38,677 bases of DNA, from the IMG/VR virus record IMGVR_UViG_3300049437_000037; one strand, 5' to 3'. Positions 5,577 to 30,851 of the stretch are shown one piece after another (the stretch's first letter is position 1; each line of letters opens with the position of its first letter). Below the pieces are notes generated by a model, which ran no database searches, had not been told where the DNA came from, and saw only the letters and a program-made list of their open reading frames with translations. The stretch is from a virus. Both the position numbers and the translations under genes were made by a program.

Positions 5577-5606
5577 GGCAACGAATAGGGCAACGAATCA
5601 ACGAAT
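5570..5606 (+). repeat. CGAAT-periodic element, copy A (CGAATAGGGCAA x2, then CGAATCAA, CGAAT)
   Basis: CGAAT occurs at 5570, 5582, 5594 and 5602 (spacings 12, 12, 8). The element ends 13 nt before the ATG at 5620. Confidence 0.7.
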
Positions 5607-5619
5607 GGGAGAAGTGAGC

Positions 5620-6033
5620 ATGGGACAGATCACACGAGTTACCTATGGCCGGCTGACGAGTTTTGGCCGGTATGAAAACGAGCGCATTGGCGCCGATGCA
5701 GCCGTGGCCGAGGGGGAATCGCCGGACCAGGCGCTGGCGACCGTAACGGCGTTCGTCGAGCAGAAGATCGCCGAGCGTGCTGGCGCGCGTCAGCAGGTCG
5801 AACAGTTGGATGACTCGGTCATCCGGCTGCAGAACCAGATGCATGACCTCGAATACGAAATCGGCAAGGCGAAGGAACGCTATGAGACCGTGGCGCGGTT
5901 CATGGCCAAGCATGGCCTGAAGATGCCCGGCTGGCTGGACGAGGTTGAGCAGGAGGCCATTTTGGACGAGGAAGACGAGGAAGACGAGGAAGACGGATCG
6001 ATCCCGGTCAGCGAGCCTGGGTCGCCGTTCTAG
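5620..6033 (+). CDS. Hypothetical coiled-coil protein with a poly-acidic C-terminal tail
   Basis: GGGAGA lies upstream of the ATG at 5620. The C-terminus reads 'DEEDEEDEEDGSIPVSEPGSPF'. Confidence 0.6.
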   Translation: MGQITRVTYGRLTSFGRYENERIGADAAVAEGESPDQALATVTAFVEQKIAERAGARQQVEQLDDSVIRLQNQMHDLEYEIGKAKERYETVARFMAKHGLKMPGWLDEVEQEAILDEEDEEDEEDGSIPVSEPGSPF

Positions 6034-6073: not shown

Positions 6074-6562
6074 ATGAACGCGTTTATTGTGACCGATCCG
6101 GTGGTGGGGCACGTGGCCACGCTGGTCGATGATCCGCTGATTACGAAGTTGGCGAACCGGATGGTGATGGCTTACCTGCGCCAGGGCATGCAGGTGTCGT
6201 TTGAACGTGATAGGGGACTCCGCCTCGCGGAGCAGCCGGGAGATCCGCCGGCGAAAAAAACCATCAGGCGGTCGGCCACGCGCCGGCGTGTGGCGCGCGC
6301 GACGGACGAGGCCGATCAGGCCGGCCAGGCCGAGCCCACCAAGTGGGCGGTGGGCGACCGGCCGTTCCTGAAATGGATCAAGCTGGACGCCGAACAGCAG
6401 GTGCACCTGAGCCAATATGCCATGCAGCGCGGCGAGGTGGTCGAGATCGTGCAGGGGGCAGGTCGGGGCAGCCGGCCGACGTATCGCGTGCGGTTCAACG
6501 GTGACCCAGAGGCGATTGAGTTGAAAGGAAACCAGCTCAGCCGGTCGGCGTACATCAGCTGA
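6074..6562 (+). CDS. Hypothetical protein
   Basis: GGAGGA lies 9 nt upstream of the ATG. 162 aa, with a C-terminal SH3/Tudor-like segment 'GEVVEIVQGAGRGSRPTYRVRF'. Confidence 0.6.
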   Translation: MNAFIVTDPVVGHVATLVDDPLITKLANRMVMAYLRQGMQVSFERDRGLRLAEQPGDPPAKKTIRRSATRRRVARATDEADQAGQAEPTKWAVGDRPFLKWIKLDAEQQVHLSQYAMQRGEVVEIVQGAGRGSRPTYRVRFNGDPEAIELKGNQLSRSAYIS

Positions 6563-7340: not shown

Positions 7341-8925
7341 ACTGTGGTTTCTGGATCAGATCGACGACAACCCGTATCAGCCCCGGCGAGAGTATGCCGG
7401 CATCGAGGCGCTGGCCGAAGACATCCGGGTGAATGGGCTGCTGCAACGGCCGCGCGGTCGCGTCCATCCGGCGGACCCCACGCGCTTGCAGTTGCAGTTC
7501 GGGCACCGGCGCCTGCGGGCGTTCCTGTGGTTGGCCGATCGGTATCCCGATGAGTCGCGTTGGCGGGCGCTGCCGATCGACGTCGACGACATCCCAGATC
7601 GCGTCATGTTCGACCGGGTGATCGCGGAGAACGCGCAGCGCTCCGACCTGAGTGACATCGAGCGGGCGCGCTCGATCCAGCAATACATTGCCGAGTTCCA
7701 CGTGAGCCAGGCCGAGGCGGCGACGGCGTTCAACCTGAAGACGCAGGCGGCCGTCAGCAACCTGTTGCGGCTGCTGAAACTGCCGGCGCCGGTGCAGGAC
7801 CTGGTGCACGAGGGTGTGTTGCCCCAGCGCCTGGCGCGCCAGCTCACGGTGTATGCCAAGGTCGACGAGGCGGGCGCGGTGGAGATGGCCCAGGCCGTGG
7901 CGGGAGCGGTGGATAACAAGGACGAGGCCTGGGAGAGCGAGGCGCGGGCGTTTGCGGATCAGCGGCGGGCGGGCTGGCTGCCGCAGGCTCCATGGAAGCC
8001 GGAGTGGCCCAAAGAGCCGATCCCCATGTCCGTGGAAATACAGGCCCAAGGGTTGGCGGAGATTCGGGCGTGTGTGGGATGCGAGTTCAACGTGGGCCAC
8101 CGTGGGAACGGGTCGTGCCTGTGGAAGCTGTGCTGGGGCCAGAAGTTGGCGATCAAGCTGAAGGATGAGATCGCGGCGGCGGGCAAGAAGCTGGGCGTGG
8201 CGGTGGCGCAGCCGGGTGAGAAGGTGTCGCGGATCTACTCGGGAGGGTGGCAGGAGAAGGACATGCTGCGGGCGGTCCTGAGACTCAAACCGGGCGCGCC
8301 GGGGCATGACAGCCTGCGCGTGTATGGGCTGGAGCGCGAGGCTTACCAGGAGCGGGACCTGTTCGGGAGCGGCTGGGTGGGCCTGGGCACGGTGAACATG
8401 CGGGCGGTCAATGCGGCGTTGCCGAAGAAGGCGGTCGAGAAGGCCGAGCGCAAGGCGGAAGAGCAGAAAGAGAGCTATCAGGATCGGGAAAAGCGCAAGG
8501 AACGGGAGCGCCAGGCGGCGAGAGCGGTGTGTGAGGCGCTGCTGGATCCGGTCGTGGCGCGCCTGGCGGCGCACATTCCGGTCGGTGCGGTCGACCTGCT
8601 GGCCGCCGTGCTGAAGGGGAATGCGTGGCGGGCGATGGACGACTTCGCCGGCACGTATGAGAAGACGCCGCCGGCGCGCCGGCGTGAGCTGCTCGTGCGG
8701 GTGCTGGTGTGTGAGTTGGGTGACTATGACAAGTGGAACCCGAAGGAGAAGGCCGTCCGCGACGGGGCGTGGAAGATCGCCGAGCTGCTCGGTGTGACGT
8801 TGCCGGAGGGGTGGGCCAACGAATCGGGAACGAATAAACGAATGAAGGCGGCGAAGGGCGCGAAGCCGGCGACTCAGGCGGTTGGGGCGGAGAGTTCGCA
8901 GGCCGGCGGGAAGAAGGGGAAGTGA
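7330..8925 (+). CDS. ParB/Spo0J-like N-terminal (ParB nuclease/CTPase fold) domain protein with a long unique C-terminal region
   Basis: 'NPYQPR...IEALAEDIRVNGLLQRP...LQFGHRRLRAF...IAENAQRSDLSDIERA' matches the ParB N-terminal boxes, including the GxRR motif. This is followed by an HTH-like segment 'SQAEAATAFNLKTQAAVSNLLRLLKLP'. A Cys cluster 'CVGCEFNVGHRGNGSCLWKLC' is also present. Confidence 0.8.
   Translation: MEGELWFLDQIDDNPYQPRREYAGIEALAEDIRVNGLLQRPRGRVHPADPTRLQLQFGHRRLRAFLWLADRYPDESRWRALPIDVDDIPDRVMFDRVIAENAQRSDLSDIERARSIQQYIAEFHVSQAEAATAFNLKTQAAVSNLLRLLKLPAPVQDLVHEGVLPQRLARQLTVYAKVDEAGAVEMAQAVAGAVDNKDEAWESEARAFADQRRAGWLPQAPWKPEWPKEPIPMSVEIQAQGLAEIRACVGCEFNVGHRGNGSCLWKLCWGQKLAIKLKDEIAAAGKKLGVAVAQPGEKVSRIYSGGWQEKDMLRAVLRLKPGAPGHDSLRVYGLEREAYQERDLFGSGWVGLGTVNMRAVNAALPKKAVEKAERKAEEQKESYQDREKRKERERQAARAVCEALLDPVVARLAAHIPVGAVDLLAAVLKGNAWRAMDDFAGTYEKTPPARRRELLVRVLVCELGDYDKWNPKEKAVRDGAWKIAELLGVTLPEGWANESGTNKRMKAAKGAKPATQAVGAESSQAGGKKGK
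8820..8843 (+). repeat. CGAAT-periodic element, copy B (inside the 3' end of the ParB-like CDS)
   Basis: ACGAATCGGGAACGAATAAACGAAT. It is identical to copy C except for a 1-nt indel. Confidence 0.7.
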
Positions 8926-11537: not shown

Positions 11538-11756
11538 GGTGTTGCCCACTATCGCGCCGGTCAAGGCTAGTGGGCAACACCAGGCTTTGCCGACTGCCGG
11601 CAGTGCCGGTGCCGGTGGTGCCACCGGTGGCAGTAGTGGGCAGAGCGGCCCGTCTGGCCAGGATCGCGCTGAGTCCCCGGCGACGAGTTTGCCCACTACA
11701 TCTGCCGTTGTGCCCACTATTGCCAGTAGTGGGCAAGCTGAACGGCTAGTGGGCAA
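11538..11756. repeat. Iteron cluster 1: seven copies of TAGTGGGCAA or its complement TTGCCCACTA
   Basis: Perfect copies at 11542-11551(-), 11568-11577(+), 11689-11698(-), 11727-11736(+) and 11747-11756(+). 9/10 copies at 11634-11643(+) and 11710-11719(-). A 14-bp perfect inverted repeat pairs 11538-11551 with 11568-11581. Confidence 0.9.
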
Positions 11757-12036
11757 AGGGGGTTGGCGCGAGTATCGGAACACAGGTGGCCGGCTACGGT
11801 GGGCGATTGACCGGGAGTGGATCAAAGCGGGCGGTAGGTGGGCGAAGCAGGGACATAACCGGCGCGACCTGCCGCCGATGACGGAGGATGAATATGAGTC
11901 GTGGAAACAGTCGCGCGCGGTCGCGCGGGCAGACGCGAGGGAGCGACGCAGCGGAGGCGGCTCCGGCGGAGGTGGCACCGGTGCCGGCACCAGTGCCAGA
12001 TCGGCTGCAGGAGTTCGCCAAGTGGCTGTTGGCTGA
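11539..12036 (+). CDS. Uncertain ORF; the 5' third coincides with the iteron array, while the region from about 11760 to 11950 looks coding
   Basis: GTG start with no SD. GC3 is low across the iteron part and high from about 11761 ('GWREYRNTGGRLRWAIDREWIK...'). The true start is unknown. Confidence 0.3.
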   Translation: MLPTIAPVKASGQHQALPTAGSAGAGGATGGSSGQSGPSGQDRAESPATSLPTTSAVVPTIASSGQAERLVGKGGWREYRNTGGRLRWAIDREWIKAGGRWAKQGHNRRDLPPMTEDEYESWKQSRAVARADARERRSGGGSGGGGTGAGTSARSAAGVRQVAVG

Positions 12037-12277
12037 TCAGCGCGTGATCGAGGTGTGGGGCGCGCAGGCCGCCCGCGTGGCGCGCTTCGAGTGTGTAGCT
12101 GACGAGGCCCAGTCTCTGGAACTGGATTCCGGGGATTGGTTCCTGGTGCGTGTGTCTGGTTTGCCCACTACACCAGAGCCGGGCGGCATCATCCGGTTCC
12201 GACGCCTGGCAGAGGTCCGGGCAGTGGTCCAGTCAGCGGCCACGACTACAGCAGATGTTGGGCCGGGGCCGGCGTAG
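11888..12277 (+). CDS. Hypothetical protein flanked by the two iteron clusters
   Basis: GGAGGA lies upstream of ATGAATATG. GC3 is high. 129 aa. Confidence 0.6.
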   Translation: MNMSRGNSRARSRGQTRGSDAAEAAPAEVAPVPAPVPDRLQEFAKWLLADQRVIEVWGAQAARVARFECVADEAQSLELDSGDWFLVRVSGLPTTPEPGGIIRFRRLAEVRAVVQSAATTTADVGPGPA

Positions 12278-12314
12278 TGGGCAAAGGGTAGTGGGCAAAC
12301 CCGCTTGCCCACTA
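12161..12314. repeat. Iteron cluster 2: four perfect copies of TAGTGGGCAA / TTGCCCACTA
   Basis: Copies at 12161-12170(-), 12275-12284(+), 12289-12298(+) and 12305-12314(-). The last two form an inverted pair with a 6-nt spacer. Confidence 0.9.
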
Positions 12315-14648: not shown

Positions 14649-15176
14649 ATGCCGACACAAGCCCCACATCCATGCGCCGCCCCAGGTTGCCCGGCCCTCG
14701 TTGAGCGGGGGCGGTATTGCCCCCAGCATGCCCCCCAGTATGTAGCCCCCCACGAGGCAGCCCGAGCCACGGCGAGCGAGCGTGGCTACGGCGCACGATG
14801 GCGCCGCTTGCGCACCATGGCACTCTCGCGCAACCCGATCTGTGCTGACCCCTGGGGCGTACACGCCAAAGCTGGCCAGGTGATTGCAGCCGTGGATGTG
14901 GACCACATTCTGCCGAGGTCACAGGGTGGCCAGGATGTGTTGGAAAACTTGCAAGGGTTGTGCCACGCATGCCACAGTCGCAAGACTGTGATGAGTGACG
15001 GTGGATTCGGTCGCGAAACCCAGGCCGGAGATGACGAGGGGAGGGGGAATCAAATCTCTGGCGCCTTTGAAGCAGAGACCGCGCGCCGCGCCTTCCGCAC
15101 GCGCCCGCAGGTTTCACCAGGGGGGTATGGCGTAGGCCCGCAGGCCACGCGGCATCCCAGGAGCGGCCAGCGATGA
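14649..15176 (+). CDS. HNH endonuclease (terminase-associated)
   Basis: An N-terminal Cys cluster 'CAAPGCPALVERGRYCPQH' is followed by 'VDVDHILPRSQGGQDVLENLQGLCHACHSRKT' (H-N-H core). It sits immediately upstream of TerS with an ATGA overlap. Confidence 0.9.
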   Translation: MPTQAPHPCAAPGCPALVERGRYCPQHAPQYVAPHEAARATASERGYGARWRRLRTMALSRNPICADPWGVHAKAGQVIAAVDVDHILPRSQGGQDVLENLQGLCHACHSRKTVMSDGGFGRETQAGDDEGRGNQISGAFEAETARRAFRTRPQVSPGGYGVGPQATRHPRSGQR

Positions 15177-15667
15177 CCAGGGGACCTGCACCCAAACCCA
15201 CGGCCGTGAAGCAGCTCGCCGGCAACCCAGGCAAGCGGTCGCTGAATGGCAGCGAACCGCAGTACACGCCGGAGCTGCCCAGCGCGCCGAGACACCTGTC
15301 GAAAGTGGCCCAGCGCGAGTGGCGCCGGGTGGGGAAGCTGTTGGTGGGTGCCGGCGTGATGACGGGCGTGGATCGCGCTGTGCTGGCGCTGTATTGCCAG
15401 GCGTATGGCCGGTGGGTCGAGGCCGAAGAGAAGCTGATCGGCGAGGACGGTGTCAGCGGCCTGACTGACCTGACGCCGAACGGCATGGTCATCCAGTCGG
15501 TGTACTTGCAGATCGCGAACAAGGCGATGGAGCAGGTCAAGCGGTACGGGGCCGAGCTGGGGCTGACGCCGGCGGCGCGCACACGGATCCACGTGCAGTC
15601 GGTCGAGGCGAAGAAGAGCCTGGCGGAGATGCTGTTCGAGGGGGTGGCCGATGGCCGCGGCGGTTGA
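15173..15667 (+). CDS. terS: Terminase small subunit, P27 family
   Basis: 'GPAPKPTAVKQLAGNPGKR...EW..V...L...GV.T..D...L..YC.AY....EAE' is the typical P27-family pattern. It is positioned upstream of TerL. Confidence 0.85.
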   Translation: MTRGPAPKPTAVKQLAGNPGKRSLNGSEPQYTPELPSAPRHLSKVAQREWRRVGKLLVGAGVMTGVDRAVLALYCQAYGRWVEAEEKLIGEDGVSGLTDLTPNGMVIQSVYLQIANKAMEQVKRYGAELGLTPAARTRIHVQSVEAKKSLAEMLFEGVADGRGG

Positions 15668-20809: not shown

Positions 20810-21253
20810 ATGAACCTGATTACGAGCGTCAAGATTGAGGAAGTCGGCGCGCCGGTGGCCAACGCGAACAACACCGACCAGAACAGCGACCGGCTCGACA
20901 TGAGCGGATGGGACGGCGTGGTGTTCATCGTGCCGATCACCGACTGCGTGCAGGCCGGCGTGGCAACGCTGAAGGTCGAAGAGAACACGTCGGACAGCGA
21001 CACGGGCATGACTGCGCTGACCGGCGCGACGGCCACGGCCACGTCGGCGGGCAACGACGACCTGAACAACATGCTGTTGGTGGTCGATGTGTATCGCCCG
21101 CGCGAGCGGTATGTGCAGGGCGTGATCACCTCGGCGACGCAGAACATCGCGTTCGGCAACACCATCGCGATCCGCTACCAGGGCCGCAAGCTACCGATCA
21201 CCGAGGCGGCGAGCATCGCCGATTCGGCCATCGTGATCAGCCCGGCTGAATAG
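20810..21253 (+). CDS. Hypothetical head-module protein (possible decoration or accessory)
   Basis: AGGAGA lies upstream of the ATG. 147 aa, beta-rich, directly downstream of the capsid gene. Confidence 0.55.
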   Translation: MNLITSVKIEEVGAPVANANNTDQNSDRLDMSGWDGVVFIVPITDCVQAGVATLKVEENTSDSDTGMTALTGATATATSAGNDDLNNMLLVVDVYRPRERYVQGVITSATQNIAFGNTIAIRYQGRKLPITEAASIADSAIVISPAE

Positions 21254-21324
21254 CGCTGCCGTTTGTGGATGGATGAATGGCGCGCCGGTCGTTTGTGGGC
21301 CGGCGCGCAGGATGGAGATGACAG

Positions 21325-21921
21325 ATGGCAGACCTTTCCTACACGGCCAAGGTATACGAGCAGCAAGGCGGCGAGCGGTTGGTGGTGGCCAGCGGCGGGT
21401 CGCTCGACGTGGAGTCGGGCGGCGAGATCGACATCGAGTCCGGCGGGTCGTTGAAGATCGCCGGCACGGCGTTGACAACGACGGCGGCAGAGCTAAACAC
21501 GCTGCACTCCCCGCCGGCGTATGCGGACGGGTTGGCGATTCAGGTGGCGCGATTCACGTTCGACCCGTCGCTGACGGCGGGCATGCGGACCATTGCCGCG
21601 CACGGACTGGGCGTGAGCCTGCCGGCTAAGGCGATCATCCTGGACGGCGTGATCGATGTGGTGACCACGTTCACGAGCGCGGGCGCCGATGCCGGCACGA
21701 TCGCGATCAGCGTCGAGGGCGCGAATGACATCGTGACGGCAGTCGCTATCGCGGACGGTGGCAACCCCTGGGACGCCGGGCTGCACATGATCATCCCTGT
21801 CGTGAGCGTGGCCACGATGGTGAAGACGACCGTGGCCCGCGAGATCACGGCGACGGTGGCCGTGCAAGCGTTGACGGCCGGCAAGCTGCACGGGTTCCTG
21901 CGCTACGTCGTGAGCGAGTGA
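21325..21921 (+). CDS. Hypothetical head-module protein with an N-terminal 'SGGSLDVESGGEIDIESGGSLKI' repeat
   Basis: 198-aa ORF with high GC3 in the head module. Confidence 0.55.
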   Translation: MADLSYTAKVYEQQGGERLVVASGGSLDVESGGEIDIESGGSLKIAGTALTTTAAELNTLHSPPAYADGLAIQVARFTFDPSLTAGMRTIAAHGLGVSLPAKAIILDGVIDVVTTFTSAGADAGTIAISVEGANDIVTAVAIADGGNPWDAGLHMIIPVVSVATMVKTTVAREITATVAVQALTAGKLHGFLRYVVSE

Positions 21922-21928
21922 GGCACCT

Positions 21929-22306
21929 ATGTACGCAGAGCGACATGTGGTGACGGTGACGACCATCGCGGACGGGTCGGCGACAGCCTATTCGCCGGTG
22001 ATCACGGGCCGGATCGTCTCGATCCGCTACGTCAAGCCGGCGCAGGGCGGATTCGATAACGGCGTGGGGTTCACGATCACGGCCGAGGCGACCGGAGAAA
22101 CGATCTGGGCTGAGGCGGCGGTGAACGCATCGGCCACCCGCGCGCCGCGCCAGGCCACGCACTCGACGGCGGGTGTGGCGGCTCTGTTTGCGGCGGGCGG
22201 GACGGCCGTCGGCGACGCGATCGTGCTGGCTCAGGACCGGGTCAAGATCGTAGTGGCGGCGGGCGGCAATGTGCTGACCGGCACGTTCCACATTCTGGTG
22301 GCCTGA
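21929..22306 (+). CDS. Hypothetical structural-module protein
   Basis: 125-aa ORF, closely packed in the head module. Confidence 0.55.
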   Translation: MYAERHVVTVTTIADGSATAYSPVITGRIVSIRYVKPAQGGFDNGVGFTITAEATGETIWAEAAVNASATRAPRQATHSTAGVAALFAAGGTAVGDAIVLAQDRVKIVVAAGGNVLTGTFHILVA

Positions 22307-22573
22307 ATGAGCAGAGTCAAACTCTTGACACTGATGGCCGGCCCGACTGGTGTGTTCCAGCCCGGCCAGATCGTGACCATTTCCACGGACATGGCGACGG
22401 CGCTGGTGGCCGGCGGATACGCCGAGATGGTCGACCAGGTCGCCGACCCGGTCGAGGCGAGTGGATTGCCGGCGGCGGCGCCCAGCGGCGGGCCACCTGT
22501 TGAGCTGGCGATAGACGTGGCGCCTGAGACGGCGACCGCACCTGCGCAACGTCGGCGAGGGCGCAAACCATAG
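22307..22573 (+). CDS. Hypothetical protein
   Basis: The ATG immediately follows the previous stop. 88 aa. Confidence 0.5.
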   Translation: MSRVKLLTLMAGPTGVFQPGQIVTISTDMATALVAGGYAEMVDQVADPVEASGLPAAAPSGGPPVELAIDVAPETATAPAQRRRGRKP

Positions 22574-23590: not shown

Positions 23591-24080
23591 TGTGCTGGGC
23601 GTCAAGATGGAGGGCGGCGAAGAGATGCTGAAGGCGCTTGCCGACCTCGGCGAGAACGTTAAGAAAACGCTCAGAGGCTCCATGCGCGTCGGCGGGCGGG
23701 TCATCCAGGCCGATGCCGATGCCCGCGCGCCCAGTTCGAGGTCCGGAAAGAAGGCCGTGTTGAAGGTGTCATCGCCCAAGCGCGGCCAGGTCGAGGCGCG
23801 CATTCAGCCGTCGAAGCGGTTCTGGTATCTCAAGTTCGCCGAAACCGGCACGACCCGGCACGAGATCAAGGCCGGCGGCGGTAAGCCGATCACGTTCGAG
23901 GGCGATACGGGCCTGATTCGCACCGGTGTGGTGAGCCACCCCGGCGCGCCGGCGCGGCCCTGGTTGCGGCCTGCGTTCGACAGCAAATCGGGCGAAGCGG
24001 TTGACGCGCTTGGCGAGTCGCTGCGCGGGGCGGTCGAGGCGGCCAGGATTGCAGCCGAAGGGCAGGATGACGAAGACTAA
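23583..24080 (+). CDS. HK97 gp10-family tail/neck component
   Basis: 'ARAP..SG.....L........V..RI.PS.R.WYLKF.E.GT' and 'HPG.PARPWLRPAFD' are present. Confidence 0.8.
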   Translation: MGDVLGVKMEGGEEMLKALADLGENVKKTLRGSMRVGGRVIQADADARAPSSRSGKKAVLKVSSPKRGQVEARIQPSKRFWYLKFAETGTTRHEIKAGGGKPITFEGDTGLIRTGVVSHPGAPARPWLRPAFDSKSGEAVDALGESLRGAVEAARIAAEGQDDED

Positions 24081-24490
24081 TGACGGCTGAAGAGGGATTG
24101 GTGGTCTTGCTGACGACCGACACGGCGATCACGGCGCTGATCGGTGCGCCGCCGGTCGCGCGGGTGTACCCGCTGGTCATCCCGCAGGATGCGGACATGC
24201 CGGCCATCGCGTATCAGCGGATCAGCAGCGTCCCGAGCCGGTCGCACAGCGGGTTTTCAGGCATCACTCAGACGCGGTTTCAGGTGACGGCTGAGGCGGA
24301 TATGTACTCGACCGTCAAGGCGCTGGCCATCGCGATCCGACGGCGGTGCGAGGCGTATCACGGCGGCCTGGGCGGCGTGATGTTTCACTCTGTGTTTGTC
24401 GAAAACGAGACGGATGGCTGGGCCGACTTCGGCGAGCCGCCGGCGCCGGTGGTGAGGATCGATCTGATGGTCACTCACAGTGAGGTGTAG
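24080..24490 (+). CDS. Tail terminator / tail completion protein (DUF3168-like)
   Basis: TAATG overlap with the preceding gene. 'L..D.AITALIG....RVYP.V.PQDA..PAI.YQ.IS' is the family pattern. Confidence 0.75.
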   Translation: MTAEEGLVVLLTTDTAITALIGAPPVARVYPLVIPQDADMPAIAYQRISSVPSRSHSGFSGITQTRFQVTAEADMYSTVKALAIAIRRRCEAYHGGLGGVMFHSVFVENETDGWADFGEPPAPVVRIDLMVTHSEV

Positions 24491-24493
24491 AGG

Positions 24494-25861
24494 ATGGGTT
24501 TTTATCGTAATCGATACAGTGGCGCAAAGCCAGCCGTGGTCGTGGCTGTGCTGGCCGCATTCGTGGTGTTGGCCTGCATCGTTGGGCCGGCTGTGCCGGC
24601 GCTGTTCGCGCGCACGCCGCCGGCGGTGGGTGCCCAAGTGGGTGCCCAGGCCACCCCGCGAGTGGTGGACCACACCACGATCAACCTGTTCTATCAGCTC
24701 GCGGCGGATGATGTGGAGCTGGCTCGCTTACGTTCGTGGCTCGTGATGTACGGTGATAAGTCGGTCGGCGACAACATCCGCACGGGGCTGACGTGCCTGG
24801 CCGGCACGGGCCCGGACAGTTGCGCGCCGGCGCTGGAGCAGCTCGGCCTAACAGATCTGGCCGGGCCACGTTTCAGCATGACCAACATCCGCTACGCGAT
24901 GATGGACGAGGCGGGGTGCGGGAACTGGGACGAGCTGGGGCAGTGTTTCCAGAACGAAGTCAACGCCATGCCGGGCGACTACGCCGCGCTGTCCTGGGGC
25001 CACAGCTACATGGAGGTCGAGCAGCCGGACGTGTTGCGGTATTTCAACGACCTCGGCGCGCCGGGCAACGTGGTCGCATATGAAGGCTACCAGGACACGA
25101 AGGGCGTGCCGCGCTGGTACTGGACCAGCTCGCTGAACAACGGTTCGAACGATGAGGCGGCCAGCTATAACGCGGCGATGCGGGCTCGTGCGACCCAAAC
25201 GGGCGGTGTGTTGCTCGACACGGCTGACCTGTTGAGTTACGACCTGAACGGCGATGCGTGCACGTCGTTGCTGGGGTACATGCCGGGCCTGTGCAATCCC
25301 GCCTACACCATCCAGACCACGGTAGGCGGCGGGCATCTGACCAAGCTCGGCCAGGTTCGCGGGGCAATGGCGGTGTGGCTGTCCCTGGCGTTCCTGGATG
25401 GCTGGTCAGGCGCGCCGGAGCCGCCACCAGAGCCCAGCGCCACCGCGACCAGCATCCTACAAAGCCCGCTGGCCACGCCCACGCCGCCATGCGCGTGTGA
25501 GCCGTGTCCGTGCACGACGGTGACAGTGACGCCCACGGTGGTTCCTGCGACGGCTACGGCGACGGCGACCGCTACTCCGCGCCCAACGGCCACGTCAACA
25601 CGCACGCCCGCGCCGACAGTGACGCCCACGGCCGTACCCACGGCCGTACCCACGGCCGTTCCCACGGTCGCGCCCACCGCTACGGCTGGCGGAGTGCAGT
25701 GTGTGATGGCCGCCGACATGGCCGCGTTCACGGCGGACCTATACGAGACCGTTCTCAACTATCCATATCAGAACTGGAGCGCGATCGTCAACGGCGGCGC
25801 GATCACGCAAATGAAGGTGCGCGCTCAGAAGACGGCGTGCGAGGCGCAGGCGCAACGATGA
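24494..25861 (+). CDS. N-terminally membrane-anchored protein with a putative SGNH/GDSL-like hydrolase domain, a long Pro/Thr/Ala linker and a small Cys-containing C-terminal domain
   Basis: The Ala/Gly/Val-rich TM is 'AVVVAVLAAFVVLACIVGPAVPALFA'. Candidate SGNH blocks are 'YGDKSVGDN', 'GSNDEAASYNAAMRA...GGVLLDTADLL' and 'GGGHLTKLG'. The linker reads 'TPTVVPATATATATATPRPTATSTRTPAPTVTPTAVPTAVPTAVPTVAPTA'. Confidence 0.6.
   Translation: MGFYRNRYSGAKPAVVVAVLAAFVVLACIVGPAVPALFARTPPAVGAQVGAQATPRVVDHTTINLFYQLAADDVELARLRSWLVMYGDKSVGDNIRTGLTCLAGTGPDSCAPALEQLGLTDLAGPRFSMTNIRYAMMDEAGCGNWDELGQCFQNEVNAMPGDYAALSWGHSYMEVEQPDVLRYFNDLGAPGNVVAYEGYQDTKGVPRWYWTSSLNNGSNDEAASYNAAMRARATQTGGVLLDTADLLSYDLNGDACTSLLGYMPGLCNPAYTIQTTVGGGHLTKLGQVRGAMAVWLSLAFLDGWSGAPEPPPEPSATATSILQSPLATPTPPCACEPCPCTTVTVTPTVVPATATATATATPRPTATSTRTPAPTVTPTAVPTAVPTAVPTVAPTATAGGVQCVMAADMAAFTADLYETVLNYPYQNWSAIVNGGAITQMKVRAQKTACEAQAQR
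25625..25672 (+). repeat. 12-bp tandem repeat (CCCACGGCCGTA-type x4) encoding (PTAV)n in the linker
   Basis: Units at 25625-36, 25637-48 and 25649-60, with a degenerate unit at 25661-72. Confidence 0.8.
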
Positions 25862-26052
25862 ATGGGCTCACACCCCGGCACGTGGCGATCCTGCAACTGA
25901 TGGCCGAGGGGTTGACCTCGAAGCAGATCGGGGAGCGGCTGGGGATCAAGCGGGTGACGGTCGAGTCGCACCGGCGCACGATGGCCCGGCGCATGGGCGT
26001 GCAGGGGCTGGCACCGATGATTGTGCGGGCCGTCAAACAGGGGCTGATATGA
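25858..26052 (+). CDS. Stand-alone LuxR/GerE-type HTH transcriptional regulator (64 aa)
   Basis: 'LTPRHVAILQLMAEGLTSKQIGERLGIKRVTVESHRRTMARRMGV' is a near-textbook GerE domain. There are ATGA overlaps with both neighbours. Confidence 0.85.
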   Translation: MNGLTPRHVAILQLMAEGLTSKQIGERLGIKRVTVESHRRTMARRMGVQGLAPMIVRAVKQGLI

Positions 26053-26873
26053 GCGACTGGCCGTTGTATTCCGGATCCCGGCACACCACCTACGGCGCTG
26101 CGACGGCCGCTTCGAGCGGCACGCAGATCGCCTACACCGTCGCCAACACGAAGAGCGGCTGGAATCAGGTCACGGCATCGACGGCGCACGACGCGCACGA
26201 GATCTGGCTGTACGCCTACGGTGAGACGAGCGCCTGCGACATGCTGGTCGACATCGGCGTGGGCGGGGCCGGCAGTGAGCAGGTGGTGCTGCCTAACTTG
26301 GTGATCACCTCGCGCGACACGACGGCGGCCATGCCGAGTGCCATCAAAATGCCGTGCTTCATCCCAGCCGGCAGCCGTATCGCGATCCGGTTTCAGAACT
26401 CCGTGGGCGTGTCGACCATGCGGTACGTGCTGACCATCGTGCAACTGGGCGGGCTGTGGCCGCCCACATTTCAGCGCATCACAGCCTACGGGACCAACGC
26501 GGCGGACTCCGGCTCGGTATCAGTTGATCCGGGCGCAAGCGCCAACACGAAGGGGTCCTATAGCGAGATCGAGGATGCGACGGCCAACCCGATCCGGCTC
26601 CTGTGGATTGCGTTTGGCCTGCAGTCCAACACGGCCCGCACCGACTACACGTGGCTGGTAGACATCGCCATTGGCGGGGCCGGCAGCGAACAGATCATCA
26701 TCCCGGATATCTGGATTGCGATCTCTGCCAGCCGCGATACCGTTGTTCAGCAGTTCATCGGGCCGTTCGAGGTCAGTATCCCGGAAGGCACTCGGTTGGC
26801 CGTGCGGATGCAGTGCTCAGGCAACGACGCGGCGGATCGCCTGCTCGACGTGGCCCTGTATGGAGCGGACTAA
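26049..26873 (+). CDS. Hypothetical protein built from two homologous beta-sandwich-like halves
   Basis: The halves share 'LVDIGVGGAGSEQVVLPNLVI...IPAGSRIAIRFQ' and 'LVDIAIGGAGSEQIIIPDIWI...IPEGTRLAVRMQ'. Confidence 0.65.
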   Translation: MSDWPLYSGSRHTTYGAATAASSGTQIAYTVANTKSGWNQVTASTAHDAHEIWLYAYGETSACDMLVDIGVGGAGSEQVVLPNLVITSRDTTAAMPSAIKMPCFIPAGSRIAIRFQNSVGVSTMRYVLTIVQLGGLWPPTFQRITAYGTNAADSGSVSVDPGASANTKGSYSEIEDATANPIRLLWIAFGLQSNTARTDYTWLVDIAIGGAGSEQIIIPDIWIAISASRDTVVQQFIGPFEVSIPEGTRLAVRMQCSGNDAADRLLDVALYGAD

Positions 26874-26875
26874 CT

Positions 26876-27208
26876 ATGGCAGTCGGTTTGAAAACATCGG
26901 GCTCGCAGACGGCAACGCTCACGACCGAGCACACCCTGGCGACGATTACGGACGCCGGCACGTATGAGCTGTGGGTGGACACCGACGCACTGGTCAATGG
27001 CGAGACGGTGGTGCTCAAAGCCAAGTGCAAGCTGGCCGGCAGCGGCGACACGGCCAAGTTGGAATGGCAAGCGGTGTACGTGCATGATCAGGGCGCGGAC
27101 ATTATCAAGCGCAGTGGGCCGATCCCGGGCCCGTTCTCAATTGAGTTCACCCTGACCCAAACCGGCGGGACAGGGCGCGCCTTCCCGTGGGCGATTTATT
27201 CCTATTAG
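26876..27208 (+). CDS. Hypothetical protein (110 aa, beta-rich)
   Basis: Internal ATG of ORF 26603..27208, 3 nt after the previous stop. Confidence 0.55.
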   Translation: MAVGLKTSGSQTATLTTEHTLATITDAGTYELWVDTDALVNGETVVLKAKCKLAGSGDTAKLEWQAVYVHDQGADIIKRSGPIPGPFSIEFTLTQTGGTGRAFPWAIYSY

Positions 27209-27219
27209 GAGTGTGAGCA

Positions 27220-27822
27220 ATGTCGAAATCAGTGCATGATGATGTGCTCGATGGGGCGCTGAACATCGTCAAAAACAACGTCACGACGATGACCATGTGT
27301 TCTGTCGCGCCGACCACGCGCACCGAGGCCATCACGACCTACGCCCTGGCAGATGTGGCCGTTGGCAGTAGCGATGTGACGGCAGCCAACGGCGACACAT
27401 CGGGCCGGAAGATGACCGTGGCGGCCAAGACCGGCGTGACCGTGGATGCGACCGGCATGGGCACCCATATCGCGCTCGTGGATGGCACGCGGTTGCTGTT
27501 TGTGACCGAGGCCAACACCGTGAGGCAGAACACGGCCCAGGCGGGCGGCGCAAGCACGATCACGCTCGACGCGAGCGCCTCGGCAGTGGACAGCTTCTAC
27601 AACAACATGGCCGTGACCATCGTTTCGGGCGTTGGGATCGGGCAGACGCGGTACATCTCCGGCTATGTTGGCTCGACGAAGGTCGCCACGGTGGGCAGCG
27701 CGTGGTCGGTGACGCCTGACAACACCAGCGTGTTTCGCATCTATGGCCAGCAGCTCACCGCGGGCGGCGGGAACACCATCGACTTCGCGGCGTGGGATTA
27801 CGAACTAGCTGACCCGTCCTAG
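27220..27822 (+). CDS. Hypothetical virion-associated-like protein
   Basis: AGGAG lies upstream of the ATG. The motifs 'DALN.VKNN.T.M..CS..PTT..EA' and 'ASTITLDASASAVDSFYNNMAVTIVSGVGIGQTRYISGYVGSTKVATV' recur in phage appendage proteins, as recalled from memory. Confidence 0.55.
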   Translation: MSKSVHDDVLDGALNIVKNNVTTMTMCSVAPTTRTEAITTYALADVAVGSSDVTAANGDTSGRKMTVAAKTGVTVDATGMGTHIALVDGTRLLFVTEANTVRQNTAQAGGASTITLDASASAVDSFYNNMAVTIVSGVGIGQTRYISGYVGSTKVATVGSAWSVTPDNTSVFRIYGQQLTAGGGNTIDFAAWDYELADPS

Positions 27823-27841
27823 CGGACTCGCCTTCTGACTC

Positions 27842-28630
27842 ATGAGCACAATTCTCAGGCTGTGGACACCGGCAGTCATTGCCACGGTTGCCGGCGTGTC
27901 AGTGTCGCCGGTCGATGCAGCCAGCACGACCCTGGCCGATGCCGTCACTATCTCCCAGGCGCATCACGTCGCGCCGGTGGACGGCCTGAGTGCCGGCGCC
28001 GCCGATGCCGTATCGGTAGTGCAGCATCACGCGACAGCGCCCACTGATGCCCTGAGTGGTTCGGCAGTCGATGCTGTCGCCGTCGCGCAAGCCCATCACG
28101 CCGCGCCGGTCGACGGGCTGTCGTCTACGGCCGCCGAAGCGGTCTCGGTCACGCAGGTATCCCAGGTCGGGCCGGTTGATGCCACAAGCACAAGCGTGGC
28201 CGATGCCATCACAGTGACGCAGGCGCATCAAGTGACGCCTGTCGACGCAATGAGCGCAACCACTGCGGACGCGGTGACGGTTACGGAGATCGCCGCCGGG
28301 ACCATCGCGCCGGTGGATGCCACGACGGCGGGAGCGGCCGAAACAGTCACGGTCACGCAGACGTATGGCGTGAGCGGAGTCGACGCAACTTCGCTCACGA
28401 CTGCCGATGCGGTCACGGTCATAGTTCCGACCGTCTCCAACGTTGCGCCGGTAGATGGTTTGAGCCGGACTGCGGCGGACGCGGTGACGGTGACTGTGTC
28501 CAGCGGGCGGCTGACCTCGGCGACGGCCACAGTCACTCAATGGACGCTCACGGCCACGGTCACGCAGGCCACGCGCAGGGCGACGGTGACGCAGCGGACG
28601 TACACGGCGGAGGTGACGATCAATGGCTGA
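27842..28630 (+). CDS. Tandem-repeat protein (nine units of ~22 aa, 'PVD..S...ADAVTV.Q.H..') with a C-terminal 'ATVTQ' mini-repeat
   Basis: 262-aa ORF. The repeats are visible in the translation. No SD lies before the ATG, so the start is uncertain. Confidence 0.6.
   Translation: MSTILRLWTPAVIATVAGVSVSPVDAASTTLADAVTISQAHHVAPVDGLSAGAADAVSVVQHHATAPTDALSGSAVDAVAVAQAHHAAPVDGLSSTAAEAVSVTQVSQVGPVDATSTSVADAITVTQAHQVTPVDAMSATTADAVTVTEIAAGTIAPVDATTAGAAETVTVTQTYGVSGVDATSLTTADAVTVIVPTVSNVAPVDGLSRTAADAVTVTVSSGRLTSATATVTQWTLTATVTQATRRATVTQRTYTAEVTING
27908..28504 (+). repeat. Coding tandem repeat with ~66-bp period, 9 diverged units
   Basis: Units start at each 'CCGGT(C/G)GA(T/C)' (PVD) codon triplet. 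Unit lengths are 22-24 codons. Confidence 0.8.
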
Positions 28631-29281: not shown

Positions 29282-29632
29282 ATGCCAAGACAAACACTGA
29301 CGAAGACAGCCGCGCCGGGCAACTGGGCAGCCGCCGGCGTGGCGGTGACGATGACGGCCGCCAACCCAACCGACAAGGAACAGTTCGTCGCGCAGGGCAA
29401 GGACTTGCTGCTGGTGCAGAACACCGACTCGGGCGCGCATACATTCACGCTCAATTCGACGGCGGACCCGTATGGCCGGACGAAGGACATCACGACGGAG
29501 TCGGTCGCGGCGGGCGCGATACGAGTGCTCGGCCCGCTAGAGCTGACGGGGTGGGTGCAGAGCGACGGGAAAATCTACCTGGAGGCCAACAGCGCCCTGA
29601 TCAAGTTCGGAGTCATTACGCTGCCGGGTTGA
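29282..29632 (+). CDS. Hypothetical protein (116 aa, beta-rich)
   Basis: TAAATG junction with the previous gene. Confidence 0.55.
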   Translation: MPRQTLTKTAAPGNWAAAGVAVTMTAANPTDKEQFVAQGKDLLLVQNTDSGAHTFTLNSTADPYGRTKDITTESVAAGAIRVLGPLELTGWVQSDGKIYLEANSALIKFGVITLPG

Positions 29633-29666: not shown

Positions 29667-30095
29667 ATGGCACTCAGTGCATTCGGTACGTTGTTGAAAA
29701 TCGGTGACGGCGCGGGGCCGGAGGTGTTCACCACGGTCGCCGAGGTCAAGGCGATCGGCGGGCCGACGATCAAGGTGGACACGGTCGACCTGACCACGCA
29801 CAGTTCGACGGGCGCCTGGCGCGAGTTCATGCCGACCCTGATCGACGCCGGCGAGTTGACGTTCGATGTCAACTTCATCCCGACCAACGCCACGCAGAGC
29901 CAGTCGACGGGGTTGCTGAAGGACCTGAAGAACCGCACGAAGCGCAACTGGCAATTGGTGTTCCCGGATGGCAGCAGCACCACGTGGGCGTTCGCCGCCT
30001 ATGTGACCGGGTTCCAGATCTCGGCGCCGCCGGACGACCTGCTCGGCGCGAGTGTGACGTTGCGCCTGACTGGGCAGCCGACGTTGGCCGGATAG
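29667..30095 (+). CDS. Major tail protein (TP901-1/phi13-like)
   Basis: GGAGG lies upstream of the ATG. 'FGTLLKIGDG.....F..VAEVK.I.GP......VD.T.H.S....EF.P.LID.GE..F' is the family pattern. The chaperone/TMP genes lie downstream. Confidence 0.8.
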   Translation: MALSAFGTLLKIGDGAGPEVFTTVAEVKAIGGPTIKVDTVDLTTHSSTGAWREFMPTLIDAGELTFDVNFIPTNATQSQSTGLLKDLKNRTKRNWQLVFPDGSSTTWAFAAYVTGFQISAPPDDLLGASVTLRLTGQPTLAG

Positions 30096-30100
30096 GCCCA

Positions 30101-30125
30101 CGAATCGGGCAACGAATAAACGAAT
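30101..30125 (+). repeat. CGAAT-periodic element, copy C
   Basis: CGAATCGGGCAACGAATAAACGAAT, lying between the MTP stop and the chaperone SD. Confidence 0.7.
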
Positions 30126-30138
30126 CATCGGGAGGATC

Positions 30139-30543
30139 ATGGCTTTTCTGACAAAGACACAAATCCTGGAGGTCGATGACCGCCAGACGGAAGTCGTCGC
30201 CGTGCCGGAGTGGGGCGGCGACGTGATGGTGCACGGGCTGACCGGCGCGGAGCGCGACCAGTTCGAGGCATCGGTTATCAGCCGGAAGGGGCGCGACACG
30301 AACGTGAACATGGTCAACTTTCGGGCCAAGCTGATCGCCCTGTCGGTGGTCGATGCTGAGACCGGCGTACGGCTGTTCGATGACTCGGACGTCGGCCCGC
30401 TGGGGCGCAAGTCGGCAGCGGCATTACAGCGCGTGTTCGACGCGGCGCAAAAACTCTCTGGCTTGAGCCGGGAGGACGTAGACGAACTCACAAAAAACTC
30501 AGAGAGCGAGCCGAACGGCGATTCTGGTTCCGGCTCGCTCTGA
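30139..30543 (+). CDS. Tail assembly chaperone (gpG-like)
   Basis: GGGAGGA lies upstream of the ATG. The gene sits between MTP and TMP and carries a slippery site near its 3' end. Confidence 0.8.
   Translation: MAFLTKTQILEVDDRQTEVVAVPEWGGDVMVHGLTGAERDQFEASVISRKGRDTNVNMVNFRAKLIALSVVDAETGVRLFDDSDVGPLGRKSAAALQRVFDAAQKLSGLSREDVDELTKNSESEPNGDSGSGSL
30492..30541 (+). other. Programmed -1 ribosomal frameshift signal: A_AAA_AAC heptamer plus downstream 11-bp stem-loop
   Basis: The heptamer at 30492-30498 is in the correct X_XXY_YYZ phase for the frame starting at 30139. The -1 frame is open from 30498 and in phase with ORF 30546..30851. The stem pairs 30503-30513 with 30531-30541. Confidence 0.75.
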
Positions 30544-30545
30544 GC

Positions 30546-30851
30546 ATGGGGCGCACGGTCGCCGAGTTGCAGGCGGCCATGAGCAGCCGGGAGTTCACCG
30601 AGTGGCAAGCGTACTTCGCGCTGGAGCCGTTCGGCGAAGAGCGGGCCGACATCCGGGCGGCGCTGGTGGCCAGCGTGATCGCCAACGTGAACCGCAACCC
30701 GAAGAAGCGGTCGAGCCCGTTCGCTGTGAAGGACTTCATGCTGAGGTTTGGCGAAGCGGCCGGGTCACGTGAGCAGAGCGTAGAGCAGCAACTGAGCCTG
30801 GTCGAGATGCTGAACGCGGCGTTCGGCGGAGTGGATAAGAGAAAACACTGA
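30546..30851 (+). CDS. Tail assembly chaperone extension (gpT-like); probably made mainly as a G-T fusion
   Basis: It is in the -1 frame relative to the 30139 gene. 'FTEWQAYFALEPFGEERADIRAA' resembles gpT-type segments. There is a TGATG junction with TMP. Confidence 0.7.
   Translation: MGRTVAELQAAMSSREFTEWQAYFALEPFGEERADIRAALVASVIANVNRNPKKRSSPFAVKDFMLRFGEAAGSREQSVEQQLSLVEMLNAAFGGVDKRKH

Follow-up and report, generated by a model that had tools for sequence, protein, structure and literature searches.

The late operon of an uncultured temperate tailed phage (siphovirus), represented by the IMG/VR record IMGVR_UViG_3300049437_000037, carries a gene for a protein of 64 amino acids (aa) that consists of little more than a DNA-binding domain of the GerE (LuxR_C) type. 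The record is a whole metagenome contig of 38,677 bp, referred to below as the window. The 64-aa product is very probably a real, stand-alone GerE-type DNA-binding protein. The role that we tentatively favour for it, and to which we give a little less than an even chance, is that of a signal-independent, dimeric DNA-binding regulator, produced late by translational coupling and acting on phage transcription. An earlier reading of the same DNA (hereafter the original prediction), which described the gene as a stand-alone LuxR/GerE helix-turn-helix (HTH) coupled to its neighbours inside the virion operon, is as a whole partly supported by the analysis presented here: its observation is correct, and its functional proposals are reasonable as hypotheses.

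A short gene under selection

Translation recovered the open reading frame (ORF) of the original prediction together with the peptide quoted there: the gene runs from an ATG at position 25858 to a TGA at 26050-26052 and specifies the 64-aa product MNGLTPRHVAILQLMAEGLTSKQIGERLGIKRVTVESHRRTMARRMGVQGLAPMIVRAVKQGLI. Gene calling done independently on eight further contigs of this phage, all from metagenomes, predicted the same 64-aa product. Its G+C contents at the first, second and third (GC3) codon positions are 0.66, 0.45 and 0.88, values similar to those of the other genes of this phage, whose contig has 65% GC. This is a real gene under selection.

Both ends of the gene are formed by ATGA tetranucleotides, as had been announced. 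Upstream, the TGA of a gene encoding a 455-aa protein is located at 25859-25861 and overlaps the GerE start by 4 nt; downstream, the GerE stop overlaps in the same manner the ATG (26049) of a gene encoding a 274-aa protein (Table 1). GGAGG-type sites precede most late genes, unlike these two: a scan for Shine-Dalgarno (SD) sequences found none 3-12 nt upstream of either the GerE or the 274-aa gene, the nearest GAGG being 13 nt upstream of the GerE start.

Two other gene models were considered and rejected. A longer ORF, extended in frame to GTG 25504, would cover the 3' end of the 455-aa gene, which shows a proper bias; the extension has a GC3 of 0.66 and looks non-coding, and the 64-aa length is conserved in a homologue. 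A -1 frameshift fusing the 455-aa protein to the GerE frame was also discarded, with no slippery heptamer found within 25504-25861.

A complete GerE domain devoid of sensory parts

The Pfam model GerE (PF00196) matches the 64-aa protein with an E-value of 2.6e-15 and a score of 56.2 bits, well above its gathering cutoff of 23.5, a result that confirms the domain assigned by the original prediction. The match begins at residue 3 of the protein and spans model positions 3-55 of 57. Residues 2-64 can be aligned with the DNA-binding domains of StyR, NarL, DosR, SsrB, EL222 and Bacillus subtilis GerE; the alignment includes their last helix, and residues 4-63 align with solved domains of 72-82 aa. 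The four-helix GerE domain is complete in the 64-aa protein, with both the recognition and the C-terminal helices present. Among solved structures, the best matches are the output domains of StyR (1YIO), NarL (1JE8) and DosR (1ZLJ), with E-values from 1e-7 to 1e-4, and all four helices align, including their dimerisation helix. In these three proteins, however, DNA binding is gated by phosphorylation of a receiver domain, which the window protein does not have.

Neither Pfam nor NCBIfam detected a receiver domain in the 64-aa protein, which is thus not a NarL/FixJ response regulator; NCBIfam response-regulator models were matched in the last ~60 residues alone and far under their cutoffs. The autoinducer-binding N-terminal domain is also absent, so that the protein is not a LuxR-type quorum-sensing receptor. 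At the thresholds used for listing (E<=0.01 for Pfam and E<=0.001 for PHROG), matches were restricted to GerE, sigma region 4 and generic HTH families, and none corresponded to the RinA, ArpU or LtrC families. The secondary Pfam matches, HTH_23 and Sigma70_r4 (~25 bits, residues 1-39), are the usual cross-matches of the HTH fold, and PHROG gave phrog_3282 ("sigma factor") as a secondary match. Membership in the sigma-70 family finds no support, the resemblance being confined to a weak region-4-like match in a protein whose 64 aa are too few to accommodate region 2. Based on the coverage obtained with Pfam, PDB and NCBIfam, the protein is a complete output-type domain of the NarL/FixJ kind with neither receiver nor ligand domain, in agreement with the original prediction. 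Judged from its sequence, it should bind DNA specifically and as a dimer.

A very narrow clade with a conserved recognition helix

When 1.84 billion cluster representatives were scanned exhaustively with HMMER, 9,104 matches at E<=1e-3 were obtained. Among the best 150 of these, only two do not exceed 100 aa, namely the 64-aa protein itself and P0026, a protein that also has 64 aa and is 67% identical to the window protein (E 1.3e-16). P0026 is the sole relative above 50% identity among the matches listed; the others in this set are at most 48% identical and longer than 130 aa, and many rank high merely through several GerE repeats. Word-index protein searches, run with either the 64-aa protein or the two-member alignment as query, recovered no protein other than P0026 and the window protein, and a megablast comparison of the region with GenBank phages gave no match. 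When metagenomes and genomes were scanned with the two-member alignment, ordinary multi-domain LuxR-family proteins were obtained, with at most 52% identity and nearly all of 200-1000 aa; the single short match (L016, 79 aa) was set aside, as it lies in a chromosomal, non-phage context. The GerE domain family is very common, and bacteria as well as a few phages are already known to encode it in stand-alone form; the window gene belongs to a new, very narrow clade within it.

The exhaustive scan also brought out predicted proteins (P0003-P0025) in which 4-14 GerE-like domains follow one another in tandem; many of these proteins are giant, the largest reaching 7,703 aa. One of them, P0009 (740 aa), consists nearly entirely of ~45-residue HTH repeats.

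P0026 is encoded on a 909-bp contig (L015), where a GTGA overlap joins its GTG start to the stop codon of the ORF before it, an unrelated one. A DUF5681 gene, in the position of a small terminase, begins 26 bp 3' of the P0026 stop and is followed by a large-terminase fragment (phrog_979, E 1.3e-6). Outside P0026, nothing on this contig resembles the window, and the 11-mers common to both outside the gene are chance GC-rich matches alone. Since P0026 occurs in an otherwise unrelated phage fragment, the GerE gene moves on its own between phages.

The two proteins differ with a ratio of nonsynonymous to synonymous substitution rates (dN/dS) of 0.42. Their recognition helix, TVESHRRxMARRMG, is identical at 13 of 14 positions; in the N- and C-terminal parts, conservation drops to about half. 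With the recognition helix as the best-conserved segment, the comparison speaks for DNA contact as the function under selection and for similar recognition sites of the two proteins. A closer variant was found in the same sample series: L009, a contig ~84% identical to the window and the sole one with the same arrangement, has the tail-completion gene (gp17), the 455-aa gene and the GerE gene in unchanged order. At the nucleotide level, 96% identity is retained across its GerE segment, which shows three amino-acid changes in 43 codons and ranks among the best-conserved stretches of the alignment.

These data bear on two alternatives. The gene might be a non-functional remnant of a captured response-regulator gene, as its short length and the lack of an SD sequence of its own could suggest. 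The domain is nevertheless full-length in an intact frame with a GC3 of 0.88, its length is kept in a 67%-identical homologue with the dN/dS given above, and it is conserved in L009, so that such a remnant is extremely improbable. The protein might otherwise act through protein-protein contacts, either by forming heterodimers with a host LuxR-family regulator via the C-terminal helix, or by mimicking sigma-70 region 4 and poisoning host transcription. The retention of that helix and the weak Sigma70_r4 (25 bits) and phrog_3282 matches would be consistent with a decoy of this kind. Yet the segment most conserved is the recognition helix, which points to selection on DNA contact, and the GerE model scores 56 bits as compared with 25 for sigma models that reach residues 1-39 alone; we consider a decoy distinctly improbable.

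Position within the late operon

The minus strand at the left end of the window encodes an integrase and a Prim-Pol protein with a winged HTH. These are followed by a ParB-like gene, a holin gene, an HNH gene and the terminase genes terS (15173..15667) and terL, and then, on the remaining plus strand, by genes for the portal, protease, capsid, connector, head-closure, gp10-like and tail-completion gp17 proteins. The GerE gene is located ~10 kb downstream of terS within this late operon. Upstream are the Phage_connect_1, HK97-gp10-like and Tail_completion_gp17 genes, and downstream are the genes for the major tail protein, a tail assembly chaperone pair, the tape-measure protein and distal tail proteins. 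The location in the virion operon that had been proposed is thus correct, with head-tail joining genes and tail genes of the late strand on either side. All intergenic gaps between 22641 and 28979 are of 20 nt or less; the gap before the 455-aa gene is 3 nt, and the GerE gene is preceded by the 4-nt overlap already described.

The position is also uncommon, as the original prediction had remarked. The window was compared with 25 viral contigs encoding relatives of its major tail protein, four of which have a recognisable gp17 gene. In all four (L100, L101, L119 and L120), gp17 directly adjoins the major tail protein gene, and relatives of the 455-aa, GerE, 274-aa, 110-aa, 200-aa and 262-aa genes occur in none of the 25 related loci. 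By this comparison, the six genes form an accessory block specific to this lineage (Table 1), an insertion of ~4-5 kb between the tail-completion and major-tail genes. It extends from ~24494 to 28630 and maybe to 29281, since the 116-aa gene that starts at 29282 has relatives beside the major tail gene in two of the loci (L103 and L104).

Table 1. Coordinates of the GerE-type gene, its junctions and its surroundings in the window
Feature	Position	Strand	Basis
Tail completion protein (gp17-like), left anchor of the block	24080..24490	+	Pfam PF11367, E 1.6e-10
Lineage-specific accessory block (455-aa, GerE, 274-aa, 110-aa, 200-aa and 262-aa genes)	24494..28630	+	comparison with relatives
455-aa protein gene, coupled, upstream	24494..25861	+	translation
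ATGA junction, 455-aa gene stop / GerE gene start	25858..25861	+	sequence, SD scan
Stand-alone GerE/LuxR_C-type HTH gene, 64 aa	25858..26052	+	translation, Pfam, GC3, alignments to solved domains
ATGA junction, GerE gene stop / 274-aa gene start	26049..26052	+	sequence
274-aa protein gene, coupled, downstream	26049..26873	+	translation
Major tail protein, right anchor of the block	29667..30095	+	phrog_158, E 2.5e-22; Phage_TTP_12

A putative regulator of phage transcription

The arrangement of the genes makes late, coupled expression of the GerE gene likely. Because the gene combines an ATGA overlap with the absence of an SD sequence of its own, termination-reinitiation is the simplest reading: ribosomes completing the 455-aa gene would reinitiate at the GerE start, and the product would be made late, at a level tied to that of the 455-aa protein. 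With neither receiver nor ligand domain, and with the C-terminal helix kept by which other family members dimerise, the 64-aa protein would bind DNA as a signal-independent dimer, as does B. subtilis GerE. The least certain step is the role itself. The protein may serve as a terminal or feed-forward regulator of the phage's own transcription, either by tuning late promoters or by switching early ones off after late-operon expression has begun. The window has no other gene recognised as a dedicated small transcription factor, and this, together with the position of P0026 and the existence of other phage GerE proteins, is why a phage-directed role is favoured. If phage genes are the target, the protein would be a terminal regulator encoded within the late operon itself, in a lineage with no other recognisable regulatory genes.

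Several known systems offer points of comparison. B. subtilis GerE (74 aa, PDB 1FSE) is likewise a stand-alone four-helix domain with no sensor, and aligns to residues 4-62 of the window protein. This GerE is a late product of its cascade and modulates late genes thereafter, hence the functional analogy proposed here. It is, however, a cellular sporulation regulator, and the match is remote, at the level of the family (E 4e-4), so that its specificity is not transferable. In Gram-positive phages, the late-operon activators of the RinA/ArpU/LtrC super-family are small HTH proteins encoded immediately upstream of terS (PMC3753634, PMC3152322). P0026 shares this terS-upstream position, the classical one for late activators, unlike the window GerE gene, which starts at 25858, far beyond terS (15173..15667).

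Domain-only GerE proteins are also encoded by other phages, in late or regulatory regions. Gp67 of Rhizobium phage RHph_I1_23 (70 aa) is phage-encoded, reduced to the domain, and overlaps both neighbours by 4 nt; it differs by its low identity (33%) and by its location in the early/middle region, after RusA and methylase genes and ~3 kb upstream of terS. Three Vibrio phages encode ~100-aa versions with an extra C-terminal transmembrane (TM) segment, annotated as a TM helix in one of the records. In two IMG/VR contigs, L124 and L125, a GH108 endolysin gene is directly preceded by a GerE ORF whose length is at most 125 aa, or ~97 aa when counted from its first ATG. In view of these examples, a domain-only GerE protein in a phage is not new, and the uncommon part is its placement between tail genes inside the operon. 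An association of GerE regulators with phage-tail-type structural genes is known from extracellular contractile injection systems (eCIS), which are phage-tail-like and of whose loci 25.8% are adjoined by GerE (PMC8213781). The eCIS regulators differ in that they stand beside the operon, sometimes together with a histidine kinase, in cellular genomes and next to contractile systems, whereas the window gene lies inside the operon of a phage with a non-contractile tail.

The same placement raises the possibility that the protein is packaged in the virion and ejected with the DNA, so that it would work as a regulator immediately upon entry into the next cell. Co-location and coupling with virion-type genes are what would suggest it, and nothing further does. 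No packaging signal or fusion was found, nor any slippery site toward the 455-aa protein, and P0026 and the other phage GerE proteins are encoded outside virion modules; a cargo role therefore has a very slight probability.

Repeated elements as candidate sites

Two families of repeats in the window could each provide sites for the 64-aa protein. The 10-mer TAGTGGGCAA is present in 10 exact and two one-mismatch copies on both strands, all within 11542-12314 and among them inverted pairs with 6-7 nt spacers; no exact copy occurs elsewhere in the window. This interval has no clear coding signal and separates the early genes from the lysis and packaging genes, and the array is a candidate origin, centromere or operator array. 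The second family is a triple ACGAAT element, such as GGCAACGAATAGGGCAACGAATCAACGAAT, found at 5577-5606, 8815-8843 and 30096-30125, always on the plus strand, with hexamers spaced 11-12 and 8 nt apart. In two of the three cases the element separates a stop codon from the following ribosome-binding site; one of these two is in the interval between the major tail and tail chaperone genes. The ACGAAT element is absent from related phages.

Neither family is represented on L015, the contig of P0026. On L124, a viral contig unrelated to the window, one-mismatch copies of TAGTGGGCAA at 5797-5806 and 6298-6307 flank the GerE gene, whose product is 41% identical to that of the window; with ~0.7 such matches expected per locus, these copies are probably due to chance.

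Phage or host promoters as possible targets

A number of observations weigh against a regulator directed at phage genes. An activator encoded inside an operon under its own control would be an odd design. A consensus-based scan for promoters and terminators performed at chance level, the promoter type of the host not being identified, and the search of the window for the lux-box-like palindromes contemplated by the original prediction found no recurring palindrome family. The TAGTGGGCAA array looks equally like origin iterons bound by the Prim-Pol/winged-HTH protein or like a centromere bound by the ParB-like protein, and the ACGAAT triplets may be an RNA element. A recognition helix common to two unrelated phages fits a common host target as well as it fits a phage one. 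Finally, the block with its orphan neighbours could be a conversion or moron cluster.

Following this line, the protein would hijack a host regulon or take part in moron-type conversion, as a mimic of a free NarL/FixJ/LuxR output domain that occupies host promoters. It may do so late in infection, or in the lysogen given an internal promoter, and maybe together with the membrane-anchored 455-aa protein. The closest non-phage relatives of the window protein are indeed C-terminal domains of bacterial response regulators (40-52% identity), and a near-identical recognition helix in two unrelated phages would be natural if a host sequence were the target. Morons typically sit in the tail region of phage genomes, and the GerE gene belongs to a lineage-specific accessory block of that region, where the TM anchor and Pro/Thr-rich linker of the 455-aa protein make it envelope-like rather than a virion part. 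When features of morons were examined, the block proved to be absent from relatives, but its GC3 could not be distinguished from that of the rest of the phage. It also has no promoter-bearing intergenic space and no surrounding terminator, the scan again being at chance level, and reprogramming the host minutes before lysis would bring no obvious benefit. We regard a host-directed role as rather unlikely, though as a serious competitor of the favoured one. In its most explicit form, an always-on copy of an output domain, produced late or in the lysogen, would take over the sites of a host NarL/FixJ/LuxR regulon without the signal that the host requires; the two phages would then have the same recognition helix through recognition of the same host sites, and in an extreme version the protein would be loaded into the virion. 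This takeover is unlikely in our estimation.

If host promoters are the target, the gene would specify a minimal viral mimic of a two-component output domain. The interest of the gene is modest unless the target proves to be a host regulon. With either target, the gene marks the tail-completion/major-tail interval as a hot spot for gene insertion, occupied here by six orphan genes.

The accessory block and its genes

The 455-aa protein begins with an N-terminal TM helix, followed by a ~270-aa domain containing cysteines, a Pro/Thr-rich linker and a C-terminal domain of ~60 aa. A Cys-rich motif (PPCACEPCPC) is present, and the long Pro/Thr linker is encoded by 12-nt tandem repeats at 25623-25677. 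A TM-anchored protein is odd content for a virion operon. One homologue was found (P0002, 75-80% identical), and none beyond it. Searches of Pfam, NCBIfam and PDB gave no match, and PHROG a single sub-threshold one (E 8.6e-4), to a family without known function. The AlphaFold model has a predicted local distance difference test (pLDDT) score of 33 and is not usable. For want of family matches and of a usable model, the "SGNH-like" label that this gene had received in the original prediction finds no support.

Downstream of the GerE gene, the 274-aa protein is predicted to be all-beta and contains a tandem duplication (VDIGVGGAGSEQVVLPNL / VDIAIGGAGSEQIIIPDIW), with an internal repeat in its gene (26243-26282 and 26654-26693); its AlphaFold model is also unusable (pLDDT 39). 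The 262-aa protein (27842-28630) is made of about nine ~22-residue repeats (APVDGLS..ADAVSV.Q). The other genes of the block have essentially no matches in Pfam, NCBIfam, PADLOC or PDB sequences and are orphans, and the sub-threshold match of the 455-aa gene is the sole PHROG match within 24494-28630. Scans of viral contigs found no relatives of the 274-aa, 200-aa and 118-aa proteins. Nearby, PHROG assigned the 118-aa gene to phrog_1084 (unknown function) and the 116-aa gene to a "tail protein" family.

HTH genes within structural operons are a signature of anti-CRISPR (acr) loci and their aca regulators in Mu-like Pseudomonas phages, and the flanking genes in the window are orphans; the original prediction had accordingly proposed an Aca-type autoregulator, which would here control an anti-defence operon embedded in the structural genes. 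However, neither the membrane-anchored 455-aa protein nor the 274-aa protein is small and Acr-like, and nothing defence-related was found for the neighbours in PADLOC or PHROG. There is also no promoter-bearing gap, no operator-like inverted repeat was found when 24300-24600 was searched, and the neighbours of P0026 are entirely different, being terminase genes. An Aca-like function is highly improbable.

Other features of the window

Searches for tRNA genes and Rfam families gave no matches in the window. The tail assembly chaperone gene (30139..30543) has an AAAAAAC slippery heptamer near its end, at 30492-30498; the -1 frame is that of the Phage_tail_T ORF (30546..30851), in the usual G/GT-type frameshift arrangement. 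Four more small orphan genes (147, 198, 125 and 88 aa) form a second set in the capsid-to-connector interval at 20810-22573, with GC-rich hairpins after both the capsid gene and the 147-aa gene. In the window, the head-to-tail region exceeds that of the relatives L105, L107 and L114 by ~6 kb.

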